Below, piece after piece: positions 2,430 through 30,382 of a DNA stretch of 64,000 nucleotides. Origin of the DNA: Lama guanicoe (Eukaryota); contig MU053487.1 of the NCBI GenBank assembly GCA_013239625.1, positions 1,507,058 through 1,571,057 on the forward strand, given 5' to 3'. How positions within the stretch are numbered: position 1 is the stretch's first letter; each line of letters begins with the position of its first letter. A model generated the notes under the pieces. The model did not search any database, was not told where the DNA came from, and saw only the letters and a list, made by a program, of their open reading frames with translations. Both the position numbers and the translations under genes were made by a program.

Positions 2430-2930
2430 CTATATCTGTTAGAGAAATTGTCAAAAATATTCCCATACAAAACCTTCAAGGCCAAATAATTTTACTGGTG
2501 AATTTTGCCAATTATATTTAAGGAAAAATTAATATAAGCTGTACACAAATGGTTTCGTAAAGTAAAAGGGAGAGAAACATATTCTGACTTGCTGTATGAA
2601 GCCAGAAAAATCCTGATACCAAACCTGACAATCACAAGAATACAATTATTAACCAGTATATCTTGACAAAATCTTACCAAATCATATTCAACTTATTTTA
2701 AAAATGGATATTATGCCATGATTCAATAGCATCAATCCCAGGAATACAAGTTCAAATTAATTTTACCATCATGACAGGAGAAAAACCAAATGCTCATCCC
2801 AACAGATGCAGAATAAGCATTTTTAAAAATCTATCAACCATTCCTAATAAAATATCTCAGCTAGCAAACTAAAACAGGAAAACATCATCCTTAACCGTAT
2901 AAAGGGCACAGATAAAAGACTTACAGTTAA
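2430..2930 (+). mobile_element. Old L1 (L1M-type) ORF2 fragment
   Basis: A-rich, with L1 ORF2 nucleotide hallmarks such as ttttactggtgaatt, tatgaagccag, cctgataccaaacctgacaa, gatgcagaataagcatt. No open frame. Confidence 0.75.
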
Positions 2931-3014
2931 TAAATAAATTAATGATAAAAAACAATGCATGGGAACTATAAGGTTGGGAGCGGACAAAGATATTTCCTCT
3001 TTTCTTGGACAGTG

Positions 3015-3470
3015 TGTCACCAAGCAGGACCCTATAGGACAGAGCCCTCCCCCATATCCTGTGCTGTAGCTCCTCTCTGAACGATCCAGATAATAGTATC
3101 CCCTGCATGTGTCCTGAGTTTTTTCAATGCTCAAAACCACCACCAAATTGAAGAAATGAACCACTTGATGATTGTGAGCACGTGGCACTCAGAGATTGAT
3201 AGTGTTGCCCGCCCTGTTTCCTCACCACCAGCCAATCGGAGAACTGCGCACGCGCTGACCACGTGCCCCTCCACCCCCTCCCTCACCTGCCTTTAATTAA
3301 GCTTTGCTGAAAGCCTTCAGGGAGCTCAGGTTTTCCTCTCAGCCAGCTCCACCCTCAGCTCCTTTGTCGACCCTACGGGCCCTGCCGGCAACCTCGCTCT
3401 GCCCCAAACTTCGAGGTTTTGGTGTGTTTGGCCTCACAGTGCGTGGGGCACGGACTTGCCTCCGCTAACA
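3015..3470 (+). mobile_element. ERV1 5' LTR (cetartiodactyl-type)
   Basis: Starts TGTCACCAAGCAGGACC and ends GCTAACA. CCAAT at 3232-3236, TATA-like ctttaattaa at 3291-3300. Followed within 5 bp by a PBS-like sequence. Confidence 0.8.
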
Positions 3471-4370
3471 GTTTTGGTCAAGCGAGTCCCGGAGTCTGTG
3501 CCCGCGGCGGGTGGACCTCGGCCCGGGCCCCTCCCCCGGGTGGCAGCAGCGGCCGGGGCTCCCTTCGCTCAGGGGGTCTCGGAGGGACCTGCCCGAAAGG
3601 CGCAGGCCGTCCCGCCGCGAGGCTGTTTGGAGCCAGAACCTTCCAGAGCTGCGTCCACACCCCGGGTCGCCTGAGGGTGAGTGAGCCCAGCTCCCGCGGG
3701 CTGGGAGTTCTCTCCGCCGTCCGGGCCCGTCCGCACGGGGAGGGGGCCGCTCTGGGCTCAGGGCCGGCCGCTCCGCGTCCTGTTTGGAGCTCTCGAGGCC
3801 CAGCTGTTCGGAGGCCCCGGTCTAGGAGTACCGGCGGAATTTTTAGACGACGTCTCCTCAGGTTTGCCGTCTGTGCGACCGGAGCTGCTTCGCGGCTTGT
3901 GTTTCTGTGGGTCTGCTTTCGGGGTGAGCCACGCGGGCTTGCGCAGGATGGAAAATCCCACCCGCTCCGCCCGGCTGCTTCCCCAGCGGGGCCGGCGCCC
4001 CGCTGGGTCCCGCCTCCTTCCAGAGCTGGGCTCGTGCGTTTGCAGGCCTCCGTCTGGGCGTGGGAGTGGGATTCGGGGGCTGCACCTAGTTGAGCTTTGT
4101 TTGTGGCACCGTGTGTGTTGTTTGTACGTGCGTCAGAACTGGCACTGGCCGGTTGAGACGTCCCTGAGTAACAGGGTCACGTGTGAGGACACCAGGGTGT
4201 CCTTCCGTGTTGCGTTGGCCTCGCCCCGGGCAGAGGTTGGGACTTTCCCTCGTCCAGCCTCATCTCTGAAGGGGCGCTGGCTGGGGTTCTCCCCTTTTGG
4301 GCTGGCGGGGCTTTGGTTGGGAATCTCGCAGTGGGGGCTGGGGAACTGTGACCCTGAGAGACGGCTTTCG
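3230..4370. promoter_or_regulatory. CpG island over the ERV LTR and leader; candidate promoter
   Basis: About 60 CpGs counted by hand in 3481-4080, roughly 1 per 10 bp, against CpG depletion elsewhere. NRF1-like TGCGCACGCGC at 3245-3255, CACGTG at 3179-3184 and 3260-3265, GC boxes, donor AGG|GTGAGT at 3676/3677. Confidence 0.75.
3475..3496 (+). other. Degenerate primer-binding site, tRNA-Arg type
   Basis: TGGTCAAGCGAGTCCCGGAGTC aligns with TGGCGAGCCAGCCAGGAGTC, the complement of the tRNA-Arg(ACG) 3' end, with a few substitutions and two 1-bp insertions. Confidence 0.6.
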
Positions 4371-5636
4371 TTGTTTGCTTGATACTTGGTAACATCAGCT
4401 GTGAATAATTGTGTGGATGATCAGAGCTCTGTTCCATCTTATATATAGTTTTCCCAGAGTGTATTTTGCAAAACCGGGAGATCTTCAGCTAAGCTGCCTT
4501 AAATGAAAGAAAATGATATTTGTATTGTAACACTTTGTGACCTTAGGACTCCCAGAAATCGGGAAAACAGTGGCGCTAATAACTCTGCTATTGTATCAAA
4601 GTGGGCCTTCTGCAGTTTGGCTTTTATCTTGGGTGTGTCCAAAGCCTGTTCTCTCTTCCTGGTTGTGCTGAAAGTGGGGCATGCGAATGTGAGTGACTAT
4701 GTTTATATGTATTTTATTATCAATTACTGTTATTTAAACTGAAGTGGATATTTGGGAACTGGGAAAAAAAAAAACTGAAAATAGCCACGATATTTGGGTT
4801 TGGTATAGCAGAGGAGGAATTTGCGTTTCACTTCCTGTGCCTTTGAGATGTAAATGATCTACCTGGGCTCACGAGGAAAAAAAGGTTTTTTTAAAACTCA
4901 AGCAGGAAAACTGAGATCTCTAGTTCTGTCTGTCTTTATGTAAAAATTAACATGTAAAAGAATTCTATTTAATTGACTTAAAAGTAAGCACTCAAATTAA
5001 ATACTTCTAAGTATAAAAGAAGCTAGATAACAAATTTCAGGCTCATGTGATCTAGGAAATATTCAATACTAAGTTAACATCTGATATGAAAGCTAGTTTA
5101 AGCTTGTTGGTATAATCAACCCAGACATCTTTTACTGTACCTAAGTTTACTGAAGGTCAGTGGGTTTATGTTGTTTCTGTTGCCAAGTTTGTCTGCAGGA
5201 AAAGAAATTTTAGTTTACTTGCTATGATAAAATGCTTATAAGTAAATTAAATGCAAATGGCATAGGAGTTTTTCAGGTGAGCTCTTCAGAAATAATTCTG
5301 AGGAATGTCTACTTAAAAATGATCTCTCCGTACATTTGGTAACTTGAAATTTTAGAGTTGTGCTAACTTAAGTTAAATAATGGACATTTATTATATAGCT
5401 AGATCATTCCCAAACAAAATAAGAAACTGAAATATTTACTAAACATTGGCTTCCCTTTACAGAGAAACTAAAGGTATTTAAGACTATTAAGTATTTTCAC
5501 TGCCACACTGAAATATTTTCTATAAACACATGTTTTTAGAAATTACTGGTATTTATGTTTGCCAATCTACAGAATGCTAATGTAAAAGACAGTTCATAAT
5601 TGCTTACTTCTTGGTTTTCACTAGAAATTAAGGTTT

Positions 5637-5973
5637 ATGTATATATATATATATTTATTGAAGTACAGTCAGTTTACAACGTTGTCAATTTCTGGTACAG
5701 CACGATGCTTCAGCCATACATGAACATACATGTATTCGTTTTCATATTCTTTTTCACCATAAGTTAATACAAGATACGGAATATAGTTCCCTGCACTATA
5801 CAGTATGAATGGATTTTGTGAGAATCCTCCGTATTTCAAAGTGAGAGATACTCTGCCGCCAGCGTTCAGTAGGTGTTCTGTGCGATTCATTGGGTTTGTA
5901 GATGTAATTGTTGGTGTATTTGTGGGAGAGGGTGAACTGTGGGTCTCTCTAAGGTGCCATCTTGACACCTCCT
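5637..5973 (-). mobile_element. Mini-L1: L1 5'UTR start (5973-5810) fused to L1 3'UTR end and tail (5809-5637)
   Basis: Perfect 16-bp TSD ctagaaattaaggttt at 5621-5636 and 5974-5989. Minus strand starts AGGAGGTGTCAAGATGGC (L1 start with YY1 core) and contains ACAGAACACCTACTGAACGCTGGC. The 3' part matches the L1 3'UTR copies at ~8115-8272 and ~55067-55220. Confidence 0.85.
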
Positions 5974-6201
5974 CTAGAAATTAAGGTTTCTAAGAATTGA
6001 AGATTCTAATTATGTATGTCATTAAAGCTATACAAAATAATAAAGGAAACATCAGTATACAGTAGGACAGTAGGATATATATTTTGAGTAAAAAGCATGA
6101 GGAATGAAACTGCTTTTTTTAAGTAAACAGTTTATAGAAGGGGAGACCTAAAGAAATTTTGTGCATGGTCGGGCTCAAATTAGATTTAAACTTAGTTAGT
6201 T

Positions 6202-6348
6202 GGGGGAGGGAGTTACAGCTCAGTGGTAGAGCACATGTTTAACATGCATGAAGCCATGGTTCGATCTCCACTACCTCCGTTAAATGAAATAACAATAAAT
6301 AAATAAACTTAATTACCTTCCCTCCCAAAACAAACAAACAAATAAAAA
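6202..6348 (+). mobile_element. tRNA-derived SINE (camelid Vic-1 type)
   Basis: A box agctcagtggtagagc, B box ggttcgatctcc, AT-rich segment, aattacctt-ccc motif and A-rich tail. TSD aaactta(g/a)ttag at 6188-6199 and 6349-6360. Confidence 0.85.
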
Positions 6349-6965
6349 AAACTTAATTAGGTGAAGGAATTTTGTTATTAAAAGTAGTCTGGTGCAGGAC
6401 CAAATTTGGCTCCTGTCTGTTAACAGAACAGGTTTACTAAGAATGCTTCTGATAACAGATTGTGTGAAACTTTTTGATATTTTTGACAAACTTCTTATCA
6501 AATTCTAATTAAAGTTATTTTGACTTCAACTAAGTTTGGAGTGCTCCGGAGGGCCCCTGAGGCGCCTCAGAGAAAAATATTTTGCTAGTATTGGTTGGCA
6601 TGTTAAAATACTCAGAAAGAATTGTCAAATGAGTGATACGAATGTTATTAATGTAGATATTCCAGAAATTATATAAAGTTTCTGAAATTTAGATATGTCT
6701 TGGTACAATGTTATCAGTCGTAATTCTAGTTGTTATAATAAAATGTATGTCACAGTGACTTGATTAAGCATCTTTGTCAGAAACGCTGTAGTCAGATCTT
6801 TAACCTTGCCTTTTTAAGTCTTTTGTCACTCATAGACAGCTCAACTGATGCTTTGCAAAACTGCTTCATCTTCAAGAAGATTCATAAAAAGAAATTTTTG
6901 ATAAGTACAGGTTTCCTTTAAATCATACTGCTGAACTGGGTAAAATATTCAAAAAGTCTAATGAA

Positions 6966-7087
6966 GTAATAGCTCAGTGGTAGAGTGCCTGCTTAGCAGC
7001 ACGAGGTCCTGGGTTCAGTCCCCAGTTCCTCCATTAAATAAGCAAATAAACTTGATTACCTCCCCCCAAAATAAACAAACAAACAAA
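6966..7087 (+). mobile_element. tRNA-derived SINE (Vic-1 type), slightly 5'-truncated
   Basis: tagctcagtggtagagtg...gggttcagtcccc, with the same tail structure as the copy at 6202. Decayed TSD aaaagtctaatgaa / aaaatctagtgaa. Confidence 0.85.
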
Positions 7088-7659
7088 AATCTAGTGAAAA
7101 CTCCAATTTCCTAAAACTGTCATTAAAAAGGGTTAATTACGTAGGTTTGAGTAAACTGATGAATATGGTTATAATTTTTTGGTTTTGTCTGAAATATTAC
7201 TAGGTCTTGTGTTTTTTAAATTGAACTGCTTACCAAATATTTGTCTCCCTATCAGTATTGAAAGTTACTGTTTTACTTCCAACCATGCTGTTGCCCCCAA
7301 TGTTTGGGATAGAAAGAGAATTCTCTAACGGAGTTGTCACAGAATATAACTATCATGATGTGTAACAATGCTGGCTGTAAGACTATTGCTAAAAGCACTT
7401 GTACAGTGCTTGTATAACAGTTGGGTATAAGTGGTAAGATGTATGACTTATAAATTGTTTTCCCACTGACATACCTCTGAGCCTGTTCACGTATCTGATT
7501 CGTTTTCCCTCAACATGAATAACCAGGCAAACATAAAGGAGGCCCAGCACCACGGGACATGATCTGACCCTGGGGCAGGAGCCATTACCCCAGCATGGAG
7601 GGATGGGTATTCTGATCCTCAGTGCTTTCTACTGAAAGATTTGTAATCAGAAGGGGAAA

Positions 7660-9440
7660 TGATGGGGAAATCTGCACATACTGAGGTATGGGGATGTCGT
7701 TCTGGCTTATACACAGTTTAACTTAATGATCAAAGTGTCCTGTTTTATGACCTTTTTGGGTATGCATTGTACATCTGCTTTTGTCTGGAGGAAGGGGATG
7801 CACTTGAAAATCCAAATGGAGTAGCTGTGATTCAGACATTCAAGATAAAACTATGTGGCCATCGTGGATGTGGTTTCAAACATGTTTTTGTATTGTTGAG
7901 AACTTGAATTTTCTGAGCTGTGTCTTACTCAGGAGACCACCGACCATTCTCAAAGCAATGTCTGCTGGCAGCTGCAACCTTAGGACCTCAAGGTCTCTTC
8001 TTTGAACTGTTAAGTCTTTAGACAATAAAATTGCTTTAGATCAGATGTTAGCCAAAAAAAAACCCACCATGTAATGACCAATAGCTCCTGTTATGTATAT
8101 GTTTTTTAATACATTTTTATTGAAGTATAGTCAGTTTACAGTGTTGTGTCAATTTCTTGTGTACAGCACAATACTTCATTCATATAGGAATATACATATA
8201 TTCATTTTCATATTTTTCACCATAGGTTACTACAAGATATTGGATATAGTTCCCTGTGTTATACACTATGAACTTGTTGTTTATTTATTTTATGTATATT
8301 AGTTAGTATCTGCGAATCTAGAACTCCCATTTTATCCTTTCCCAACCCCTTACCCCAGTAACCATAAGTTTGTTTTCTGTGTCTGAGTCTGTTTTTGTTT
8401 TATAAATAAGTTCATTTTTCTTTTTTTTTTTTTCCTCTCTTTTAAAATTCCACATGTAAGTGATAACATGGTATTTTTCTTTTTCCTTCTGGCTTACTTC
8501 ACTTAGAAAGACTTTCGCCAGGTCCATCCATGTTGCTGCAAGTGGCATTATTTTATTATTTATTATGGCTGAGTGATATTCCATTATATAAATATACCAC
8601 AGCTTTACCCAGTCATCTGTTGGTGGACATTTAGGTTGTTTCCATGTCTTGGCTATTGTAAATAGTGCTGCTACTATAAACATTGGGATGCATGTGTCTT
8701 TTTGAATTAAGGTTCCCTCTGGATATATGCCCAGGAATGGGATTGCTGGATCATAGGGTAAGTCTGTATTCAGTTTTGAGGAATCTCCATACTGATTTCC
8801 ATAGCGGCTGCATCAAATGACATTCCCACCAGCAGTGTAGGAGGGTTCCCTTTTCTCCACACCCTCTCCAACATTTATCATTCATGGANNNNNNNNNNNN
8901 NNNNNNNNNNNNNNNNNNNNNNNNNNNNNNNNNNNNNNNNNNNNNNNNNNNNNNNNNNNNNNNNNNNNNNNNNNNNNNNNNNNNNNNNNNNNNNNNNNNN
9001 NNNNNNNNNNNNNNNNNNNNNNNTTGCTTGTTTAGATCTTCTGCCCATTTTTGGATGGGGTTGTTTGTTTTTATCTTAAGTTGTATGAGCTGTTTATATA
9101 TTCTGGAGATTAAGCCCTGTGAGTCTCATCATTTGCAAATATTTTCTCCCATTCTGTAGATTGTCATTTTGTTTTGCTTATGGTTTCCTTTGCTGTGCAA
9201 AAGCTTTTAAGTTTAATTAGGTCTCATTTGTTAATTTTTGCTTTTATTTCTGTTGCTTGGGTAGACTGCCCTAGGAGAACATTGCTGAGATTTATGTCAG
9301 ATTGTATATGTTAATATCACATCAGAAAGAGGTTAAAACCTGCTTAGATAAAAGTAGACAACTGACTACCTGATACAAGTCTTCCCCAAAGTGCCAGGTT
9401 CGGACTGGCTTTCAGGCTTAGTCTCCTGAATTCCTCAGAG
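7660..9440 (+). mobile_element. Possible LTR after the polypurine tract, split by the L1 at 8104-9302
   Basis: Begins TG directly after the PPT and has LTR-like composition. It does not align by eye with the LTR at 3015-3470. The right boundary is a guess. Confidence 0.3.
8104..9302 (-). mobile_element. 5'-truncated young L1 (ORF2 C-terminus and 3'UTR), spans an N gap
   Basis: ORF 8318-8683 reads MFIVAALFTIAKTWKQPKCP...MEYHSAI...WMDL...LSEVSQ, the L1 ORF2p C-terminus. TSD tgtatatgtt at 8094-8103 and 9303-9312. Confidence 0.93.
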
Positions 9441-10435
9441 AATGGGGAATGAGATCCATTTTATTTTTATAATGCTTTTAAATGTAAAAAGAGATTATGG
9501 TAAATAGTTATCTCTGGAGAGGATGAGTTTTGGGTTAGGGGTAGGAAATGTATTTGGTCTCTACCATTTTATTGACAGCCATACCAGCACAATTAACTTG
9601 AATTAGAAAACATCAGATCTCCAGAATAAACACCTACAATTCCTTGGTACCCATCTCCTTCCTCTCCTTCTTGGGTTGGTCTTCTGGTTCTCATTGGCTT
9701 TCATAGTTGTCTTGACTTTTTAAATGTCCTGTTCTCATAGACATTATTTTCTCAGATCAGACGCCTGGAATTACAGTCATTGGTAACCATGAGGATGGGC
9801 TTCCTGGGACTAACCTCCAATTTGGTGGAGTCCTATTGAAATGCCAATCAAAGTTCCAGGCAGCAGGGGAAGAAGGCTTCCCTGGAGCATTTATATTCTG
9901 AAATGTAAATTATGGTTTGCCTTGACTTCCACTGCAGTCTTTAAGATGTCCTCCTCCCTTTGTTCAGAGAACATTCTCAGTGCAGCTGGGAATGCTATTT
10001 CCAATTAACGGGCAAATATGCTTGTAAGGAAAGCAAGACTATTAAATTCTTGAAGTTAAACTTAGAGGGTTTTTTTCTCACAGGCCATGTCAGCTTCACT
10101 GTACCTTGAAAGAATCAGGATTTTGGTGAAATATGATACATTCAGAATAAAATAAAAATTTACTAGGAATTACACCTATTAAGGTTTAGGAATCATGAAC
10201 AGGCAACTCATGCCAGCTTATTCCAGTTTGTCTACCATCTTAAAGACTGTTTTATTAATACAAATAGATGAGTCTATTTTGTAATTTAAGTTGTCAACTT
10301 AAATATTTTTCCTCTAAGAGATGTTAGAAATAATGAGAAATAATCTTCTTTGAGGAAAATCAAAATTATATGTACTCACTGACGCATAGAAACACTGACT
10401 TCCCTGTCTACATCCCTTTTGTGTCTTTCCCCATT

Positions 10436-28700: not shown

Positions 28701-30294
28701 GTTTGGAAGACAGGAATATGTTCTGGTAAAACCTTACTTCACATCTGTAGAATCTCTCAGATGCTTACCATTATTTAGGCCACTGTTAGGGAGAATTTTG
28801 TTTTTAATCCTAAATGATGCAAATATCAGTCTTACCAGTGAGTCTACTTTATGTCCTGTGGATCCTGAGTGACTCTCATCCAGCTTATCTGTTAGGCATG
28901 GAGGCTCCATGAGTCCAGGGAATTGCAGACTCACCCAAGAAGGAACGTGACAGACCTGAAACAACCTGCAAATTGTTTACCTAGGCCATCCTGTAACCTC
29001 ACTGTCTTGGAGAATCCTTCCACACGTGATCTTACAGACTGAGAGAACACTCCCAAGGTCTCAGGATCTACCTAAACGCAAGTGAACATCCTTGGTTGAG
29101 TCTAGCTGAAGGCCATCCAAAACTGGGCCATATGTCACAAAACAAGAACAGAGTTCTCCCTAATCCACCTTTATTCTATGTTGGCCTCCAGTACGATGTG
29201 TATAGGGAGATTACCTATATTTTTATTTTAAGGATTATATTTTGAGGAAACATATAAGGAGCATTTTTATAGAGTGACTCTAAAATTTGTGTCTTTCATG
29301 CAAAGCACCTCTTCTCCTCCAAGATTCTCAGGAAAGTAGTGCATAACTCTGGGATTCAGAATTCCACATTTTCCTAGGCTCTACAGGTGCCTGGTGCTCC
29401 AATGCAGATACCCAAGTAAGGGATAAGTTAGACCAGGTGACTCAGACTTAAAAGTCTAAGTAGGTCTTCCATACATCTTCACTCTCCTTTTCACTTTCCA
29501 CATTACCCCCACCACAAAGGAAGGAAAAATAAGCAAGTAAAGAAACAAATAAATGATAACCCAAACACACAGAAACAAAAAACACTGAATCTAAATGTGA
29601 GGCCAGAAACCTCAGCCATGTCTTCAAAGATAGCTGGCTTGGGTCAGAATGGGATCTGAGCCTGTACTGTCACAGAAACCTCAAAGTGAAAAAGAGAGGC
29701 AAGAGGACGGTTATCTTTCCCAATGAAGGTGTGCAGTCTGCCCAGATCCAAAGCATGACATTCAAGAGAAGGAAGGAACATGGTCTTCTTTCTTCAAGGC
29801 ACAGTGACTCCACCCTGCCAGGAGCACAGGACTAACCAAGGCTCTGATGATAGAATGGGCAGCTCTTTCTGTTTTGGTTGGAGAGTTAAAGGCAGGCCTG
29901 ATACATGAAGAGAAAGCAAATTAACCTTGGAAGAATGCCTTCTCTTTTCTTTTAATCCACTTAGCTTGACGCTCAAGCTTATGTTTAATCACCGAGGGGG
30001 CAGTCAGAGGATTCTCAAGATGTCCTGCTTCTGTGGTGAGGCATTTCCCCAACTTTGATCACAGCACTTCTGTATTTTCCCCATTGCCATACATAGTTCA
30101 GTACAGAACAGCCACGACAGCACAGCCCAAAGGAAAGACAACACACAGGAGAGGATATGCTTTTCCTTTTACATATATGTTAAAGGCAGATGTAGCACCC
30201 GAGCCTTTTAGTTGGACTAATACAGACACCCCGGGGTCCCACAATGGGAAATAAGTAAACCCAAGTTCAGTATGTCTGAAGTGTCTGTGAATTG

Positions 30295-30382
30295 TCCCAT
30301 CCAAGTACTAACCAGGTCCGACTCCGCTTAGCTTCAGAGATCAGAAGAGATCCAATATGTTCAGGGTGGTATGGCAGTAGAC
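30295..30382 (-). pseudogene. 5S rRNA retropseudogene, nt 1-88, tailless
   Basis: The reverse complement GTCTACTGCCATACCACCCTGAAC...GAAGCTAAGC...CCTGGTTAGTACTTGGATGGGA matches mammalian 5S at 76 of 88 positions by hand alignment. TSD gtgtctgtgaatt at 30281-30293 and 30387-30399. Confidence 0.95.

Follow-up and report, generated by a model that had tools for sequence, protein, structure and literature searches.

Near the start of the window, by which we mean the whole stretch of 64,000 nucleotides of Lama guanicoe DNA analysed here, the long terminal repeat (LTR) and leader of an old endogenous retrovirus (ERV) form a CpG island, and the question raised by this locus is whether the island marks a promoter taken over by the host or has some other origin. 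A sequence-only reading had favoured the first answer, in which the CpGs were preserved in an unmethylated copy that may drive a spliced plus-strand transcript into the 60 kb downstream.

As judged from its sequence, the element (Table 1) is a truncated ERV-like remnant: an interspersed repeat in which an LTR with TG...CA ends is followed by a leader, an AT-rich body and an env-like remnant reaching ~9461. The ERV1 class is our assumption, as is the gamma-type env resemblance of a LDNKIALDQMLA-like stretch in the env-like remnant; of the env pieces, two short ones were compared with Pfam and neither gave a match. A second LTR, a target-site duplication and the coding genes of a provirus were not found for this element, whose longest ATG frame (144 codons) lies in the GC-rich leader. 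The LTR search recovered a 3' LTR neither behind the window copy nor behind the sister copy B described below, and behind sister copy C only its first ~60-70 bases. None of the three copies thus has a full 3' LTR with its poly(A) signal, a loss that would favour long read-through. Since family copies are only 66-82% identical to it, the element is old, and the four later insertions previously reported (two L1 3' ends and two tRNA-derived SINEs) are present, with short flanking duplications, and are missing from the sister copies. In addition, 39 other LTR matches were obtained at 71-99% identity (40 of 1572 candidates scored). The primer-site region varies among all 18 aligned copies, and a relative 3% away has the same flank-LTR junction in a contig from an RNA run. 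An exon scan of the window gave no convincing coding exon among the matches listed, and the Rfam matches comprise only the two SINE heads and a weak 5S rRNA match (30264-30382, minus strand, 43.6 bits), probably a pseudogene.

Table 1. Features of the ERV-like element, with positions counted from the first letter of the window
Feature	Position	Strand	Basis and remarks
5' LTR of an old element, presumably ERV1-like	3015..3470	+	TG...CA ends; CCAAT 3232; E-boxes 3179/3260; TATA-like AT run near 3292; no poly(A) hexamer
CpG island across the leader and the 3' half of the LTR	3201..4401	.	GC and CpG o/e scan
LTR 3' end, 82/83 bases the same as copy C in the assembly	3389..3471	+	borders the N stretch of C; no second contig in DNA runs X13 and X10
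Candidate first exon, RNA contigs of the relative (95% alike)	3397..3676	+	X18 record 26, X15 record 17; contigs do not define the start
Leader major splice donor	3677..3682	+	GGTGAG in 18/18 aligned copies; spliced in two RNA studies
Putative gene-conversion patch common to copies B and C	3836..4550	+	sharp 5' edge; 99-100% to ~4230; 91-95% to ~4550; exact run of 250 bases
AT-rich internal body	4551..9461	+	about 80% identity to all family copies; ends in env-like remnant; no 3' LTR
Later 3'-end insertion, L1 class presumed from sequence	5640..5973	.	sequence comparison with sister copies
Later tRNA-derived SINE	6200..6345	+	Rfam match to SINE head; absent from sister copies
Later tRNA-derived SINE	6962..7090	+	Rfam match to SINE head; absent from sister copies
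Later L1 insertion, splitting the env-like remnant	8104..9302	-	sequence comparison

The motifs on which the promoter proposal was built (CCAAT, an NRF1-like site, two E-boxes, an LTR without AATAAA and a donor at 3676/3677) were all recovered by a motif scan of the window. Besides those placed in Table 1, TGCGCACGCGC (NRF1-like) lies at 3245 and AGGGTGAGT at 3674, with the donor GT at 3677-3678; a third CACGTG occurs at 4178, and neither AATAAA nor ATTAAA is present in 3015-5000. The GGTGAG of the donor is kept in every one of the 18 copies and CCAAT in several, so that these two motifs belong to the family at large. Of 27 further LTRs only 8 have an intact AATAAA, and its loss is therefore not special to the window copy; in another alignment it is intact in 3 of 17. 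The NRF1 palindrome occurs in none of the other copies (0 of 27 and 0 of 17), the relative has another letter at 3253, and by these alignments the site is private and recent.

The island itself is as described, with 63 CpGs in 3481-4080 (about 60 had been announced). It is the sole stretch of the window that reaches a GC content of at least 55% and a CpG o/e of at least 0.65 over at least 500 bases, and two others do so in 524 kb of the contig. Over 3836-4400, the window copy has 7.1 CpGs per 100 bases compared with 2.5 +/- 1.1 (maximum 4.6) in 16 other full-length copies, so the family is not equally CpG-rich; the 17 full-length copies counted were gathered for their similarity to the window copy, with 40 candidates scored in each search, and are a sample, not the whole family. 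Preservation explains these CpGs in part: of the 95 in the window copy, 47 are apparently shared with the family and 15 are ambiguous, but 33 are found in no other copy, and non-CpG sites show a GC bias (see below) that preservation leaves aside.

The main feature of the locus, which the sequence-only reading missed, is a near-identical patch common to two neighbouring copies on contig C6405, namely copy B (plus strand, ~1,339.9 kb) and copy C (minus strand, ~1,248.5 kb). Over 3850-4480, the identity of B and C to the window copy is 96-97%, compared with 68-82% for 37 other copies. Overall, B and C have about 80% identity to it, with 97-100% over 3836-~4550, and the identity profile rises from about 60% to 100% at 3836, remains at 99-100% to ~4230 and then falls to 95, 87 and 80%. 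Over 7100-7900, in the body, identity to the window copy is 82% for B and C and 75-82% for the others. The flanks of the three copies have nothing in common but common repeats and the alignments begin at the LTR edge; on this comparison they are independent insertions. At 18% divergence, an exact run of 250 bases has a chance of about 3e-19. A tree of the patch unites the trio with a support of 100/100; the tips measure 0-0.005 and the stem 0.28 (median 0.12). Trees of the body and of the 5' part of the LTR do not resolve the trio and have tips of 0.08-0.12. Slow conservation of the patch was considered and is out, because less than 1% separates the paralogues, compared with about 7% for the relative's contig (35 letters plus 4 gaps in 497). 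The trio thereby combines unrelated flanks, local near-identity with region-dependent trees, and paralogues closer to one another than to the relative's contig, the pattern by which non-allelic gene conversion is recognised.

Among 35 loci of the family, exact runs of at least 100 bases (142-335) were found in 6 of 595 pairs, the remaining pairs having at most 52; these six pairs are those of the window/B/C trio and of three copies on contig C6476 (39.76, 40.87 and 42.27 Mb), where the runs likewise fall in the leader; the fourth C6476 copy has runs of 90-123. These four old family copies (G000:C6476 39.76, 40.42, 40.87 and 42.27 Mb; L181, L182, L180 and L179) have near-identical leader patches with exact runs of 90-235. 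A third, weaker group lies at G000:C3272 3.936, 4.021 and 4.031 Mb (L169, L168 and L167), where a pair 10 kb apart is 90% identical over LTR and leader with a run of 91 and the third copy is 86-88% identical locally. Two equal-scoring leader matches 2 kb apart (G000:C4240 1,490.1 and 1,492.1 kb) are probably a local duplication within one copy. Homogenised copies are only neighbours on one contig or chromosome, and the exact-run comparison of loci gave no exchange between clusters.

With regard to genome context, C6405 carries OSBPL10-like, STT3B-like and GADL1-like exons. On the window contig (C1007), a multi-exon ALIX gene occupies 555-567 kb, and mir-128 accompanies ARPP21-like exons at ~1,763 kb; beyond Pfam families, these gene names are our assumption. 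We take the human 3p order to be GADL1-STT3B-OSBPL10-PDCD6IP-ARPP21, which puts both contigs likely on one chromosome, and since the gene order on C6405 and C1007 fits this presumed order, the contig joins look sound. Copies B and C are 0.09 Mb apart, with the window copy at least ~2.8 Mb off by the same order. Copy C is upstream of STT3B, copy B of GADL1 and the window copy of ARPP21, and each of the three faces a downstream gene island: the element end of B is 4 kb from that of GADL1, C is ~236 kb from that of STT3B, and the window copy, in the same sense, is ~148 kb from the likely ARPP21 island.

Changes in the patch have a strong direction. Private changes that are not CpG-prone count 18 weak-to-strong for 1 strong-to-weak in the patch, compared with 120:91 for 14 other copies (p=9e-4). 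The same count over 3015-4400 (LTR and leader) is 37:6 versus 279:262 (p=9e-6); possible old CpG columns are left out of these counts, and with them in the count is 41:5. The window copy thus displays the accelerated GC-biased substitution at non-CpG sites that is expected of a default hotspot. Lack of methylation alone would not bias non-CpG sites, and GC-biased conversion is therefore favoured; in the passages of PMC11161765 on this point, such conversion would yield GC-biased change at non-CpG sites. One other locus, L009 (G000:C2563, ~4.89 Mb), is CpG-rich, fast-evolving and GC-biased (18:2), and no partner above 75% identity was found for it. Partners are therefore not needed for an island, and L009 is likely an allelic hotspot and a useful control; L182 has partners and a modest CpG content (o/e 0.34). 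These two copies speak against any simple rule linking partners to islands.

Part of 3150-3835 was found in six RNA runs of three studies. Contigs of two RNA runs (X15 and X18, from two studies) of a relative 3-5% from the window were compared over 2900-5590, and in both studies loose contig ends at the donor indicate that 3676/3677 is spliced. Junctions leaving 3676, one of the predictions attached to the promoter proposal, therefore exist, but their acceptors lie behind a sister copy: among the loose ends listed, they map to the minus strand of C6405 with AG acceptors at 1,060,095 and 1,047,530, each with one mismatch and a single site in proper context. Both acceptors are pyrimidine-rich, and the one at 1,047,530 belongs to an exon of 61 bases that carries a GTGAGT donor of its own; one acceptor sequence has one further match on another contig. 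They are located 188 and 200 kb behind copy C, with 48 and 35 kb left to the STT3B island. No acceptor exon was found within 3 mismatches in the window or in the 524 kb around it, again among the loose ends listed, which speaks against the spliced transcript that had been expected in the 60 kb downstream. Between the acceptors and copy C there is no other family leader, only an opposite-strand LTR fragment and an unreadable 904-base N stretch. The simplest reading is that the spliced RNA was made by copy C, which would have a window-like first exon in the relative; here, exon 1 of C is N, and after its gap C is B-like, not window-like.

Could the window copy nevertheless be a co-opted promoter itself, its CpGs merely preserved, with a spliced transcript running into the 60 kb or on to ARPP21? 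We consider this possible and, on balance, unlikely. The island and motifs are real, the copy lies in sense orientation to ARPP21 at the distance given above, and an X15 contig reaches from the copy's 5' flank across the LTR as far as 3660, at a depth of 13.9 versus 2-4 nearby. However, the RNA library may contain DNA, from which this unspliced contig could come, both acceptors seen are elsewhere, the NRF1 site and the loss of AATAAA are nothing special, and the shared patch and the non-CpG GC bias would be left unexplained. What holds of the co-option claim is that the donor is really used and the leader unusually CpG-rich, but this use is probably that of the sister copy, not of the window copy.

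We propose instead, as the probable explanation of these sequence comparisons, that the CpG-island leader patch is shared by repeated GC-biased non-allelic gene conversion at a likely unmethylated, break-prone germ-line leader. The leader would have escaped germ-line methylation, and its open, unmethylated chromatin would draw meiotic breaks of the default kind. Break repair may use as templates both the allele and the nearby copies, at 0.09 Mb and at least ~2.8 Mb, and would so homogenise the patch, and biased repair would add G/C and CpG and so keep the island. The spliced RNA would come from sister copy C, and the window copy would be a promoter-competent partner, no spliced product of its own having been seen in the two RNA runs. 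Co-option of the window copy is compatible with this conversion as an addition.

Other routes to the same conversion appear improbable, namely that PRDM9 binds a motif of the leader or that cDNA of a transcribed copy is the conversion template, methylation being secondary. Some TE families are enriched at PRDM9 hotspots, according to the relevant part of a review (PMC13186367). A leader-transcribing copy does exist, yet cDNA would not predict that only neighbours are homogenised and that clusters do not exchange. As for PRDM9, GC bias is absent from most copies that have the same ancestral leader, and the stem of 0.28 implies long persistence, while PRDM9 targets turn over.

The RNA could also be the window orthologue's own if a rearrangement in the relative, by crossover in the patch, had put the window 5' part before the STT3B-side exons. 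Such an event would agree with the unspliced RNA contigs behind the donor, which are window-type through 3835 (records 18 and 27), and with the presence of one exon-1 contig only in each DNA run. We find it decidedly improbable: by the presumed gene order the window copy and C are direct repeats, so that a single crossover would remove or double megabases of DNA, STT3B and PDCD6IP included; moreover, 3 listed sites distinguish the exon-1 contigs of X15 and X18, and X15 contains two window-type variants at 3791-3887, the outcome expected from two copies.

That the patch is real and present in several copies is confirmed by DNA runs X13 and X10, neither of which is flagged as a possible source. 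In both, a single-copy contig spans 2900-3865 and ends 30 bases into the patch, where the depth increases from 33 to 70-84 in X13 and from 8.5 to 17 in X10 (2.0-2.5 times single copy, not 3), and X13 carries both indel forms at 4234. This branching exactly inside the patch, the doubled depth and the co-occurring indel variants, together with the graded identity (100-95-87-80%) and the second cluster, make it very improbable that short-read gap filling copied one locus into others, an artefact to which the N stretch in copy C, the orphan 547-base contig and the 83-base LTR match missing from the DNA runs (one contig only over 3350-3529) would point. The artefact may explain the 83-base match alone, which could be a product of the gap edge or, possibly, a further conversion patch. 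Two tiny orphan contigs, L002 (C46337) and L184 (C29365), match the exon-1 region of one copy per cluster and are a sign of assembly difficulty at the leaders; C46337 (547 bases) has the letter of copy C at 3443 and window sequence on either side. At position 3891, the collapsed patch contig of X13 has T and all three assembled copies have C, and at 3985 both DNA runs read G; these letters fit variants spreading between copies, and contigs drop minor forms. Finally, a segmental duplication or a younger subfamily, which the 85-98% likeness of B and C across 3.8 kb might suggest, is extremely improbable, being largely refuted by alignments that start at the LTR edge, unrelated flanks, and a body and LTR 5' part diverged like those of any copy.

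Several known systems resemble this one. Patchwork exchange between dispersed ERV copies is likewise described for human Y LTRs (PMC4921805, 2016); in the portion of that paper concerned, these LTRs are highly similar, whereas here the copies are about 20% apart and their near-identity is restricted to the CpG-island leader; GC bias is strong, the shared branch is fast and there is more than one cluster. Concerted evolution of possibly regulatory TE copies is common to our case and to the TE gene conversion proposed to rewire regulatory networks (Fawcett and Innan 2019, PMC6598467), where, in the passages dealing with Alu, rates are raised within 10 kb; here partners are 0.01-3 Mb apart, and one copy seems to initiate a spliced transcript on the host side. 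PRDM9-independent (default) hotspots at hypomethylated CpG islands (Joseph et al. 2024, PMC11161765; review PMC13186367) share the GC-biased non-CpG change in a CpG island; as depicted in the pertinent sections, they are host promoters repaired from the allele, whereas here the island is a repeat and repair is evidently from other copies. The words camel, alpaca and vicugna are absent from the main text of PMC11161765, and for camel genomes the relevant part of PMC8605555 reports only conversion between two LTRs of one element. Our literature search, with most subscription journals outside its coverage, gave no paper on such a leader-patch pattern or on these loci. LTR-derived alternative promoters use the leader's major splice donor; they likewise start in or near the LTR and splice from this donor to distant host exons, whereas here the first exon appears shared between loci and the acceptors seen lie before the STT3B island. 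We conclude that the feature is real; conversion among LTRs is already known, and the GC-biased exchange proposed here would be confined to CpG-island leaders in clusters.

One practical consequence is a warning, as reads from shared first exons are easily placed at the wrong locus. In the part of PMC13186367 devoted to this subject, methylation is expected to keep breaks off repeats and so to limit ectopic exchange, and these loci fit as exceptions. We tentatively suggest, with more doubt than confidence, that unmethylated ERV leaders may behave as self-sustaining local clubs: break sites repaired off neighbours up to megabases away would gain G/C and CpG and stay islands, and the promoters facing STT3B, GADL1 and ARPP21, three unrelated host genes, would evolve in concert, since a mutation arising in any of them would spread to the other two. 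If true, the conversion proposed here would offer a natural test of the idea that methylation shields genomes by keeping meiotic breaks off repeats, as these copies look like escapees and exchange sequence, and a natural test of whether conversion between TE copies co-ordinates regulatory change at several genes. It would also provide a route by which CpG-island promoters get built, and not merely preserved.
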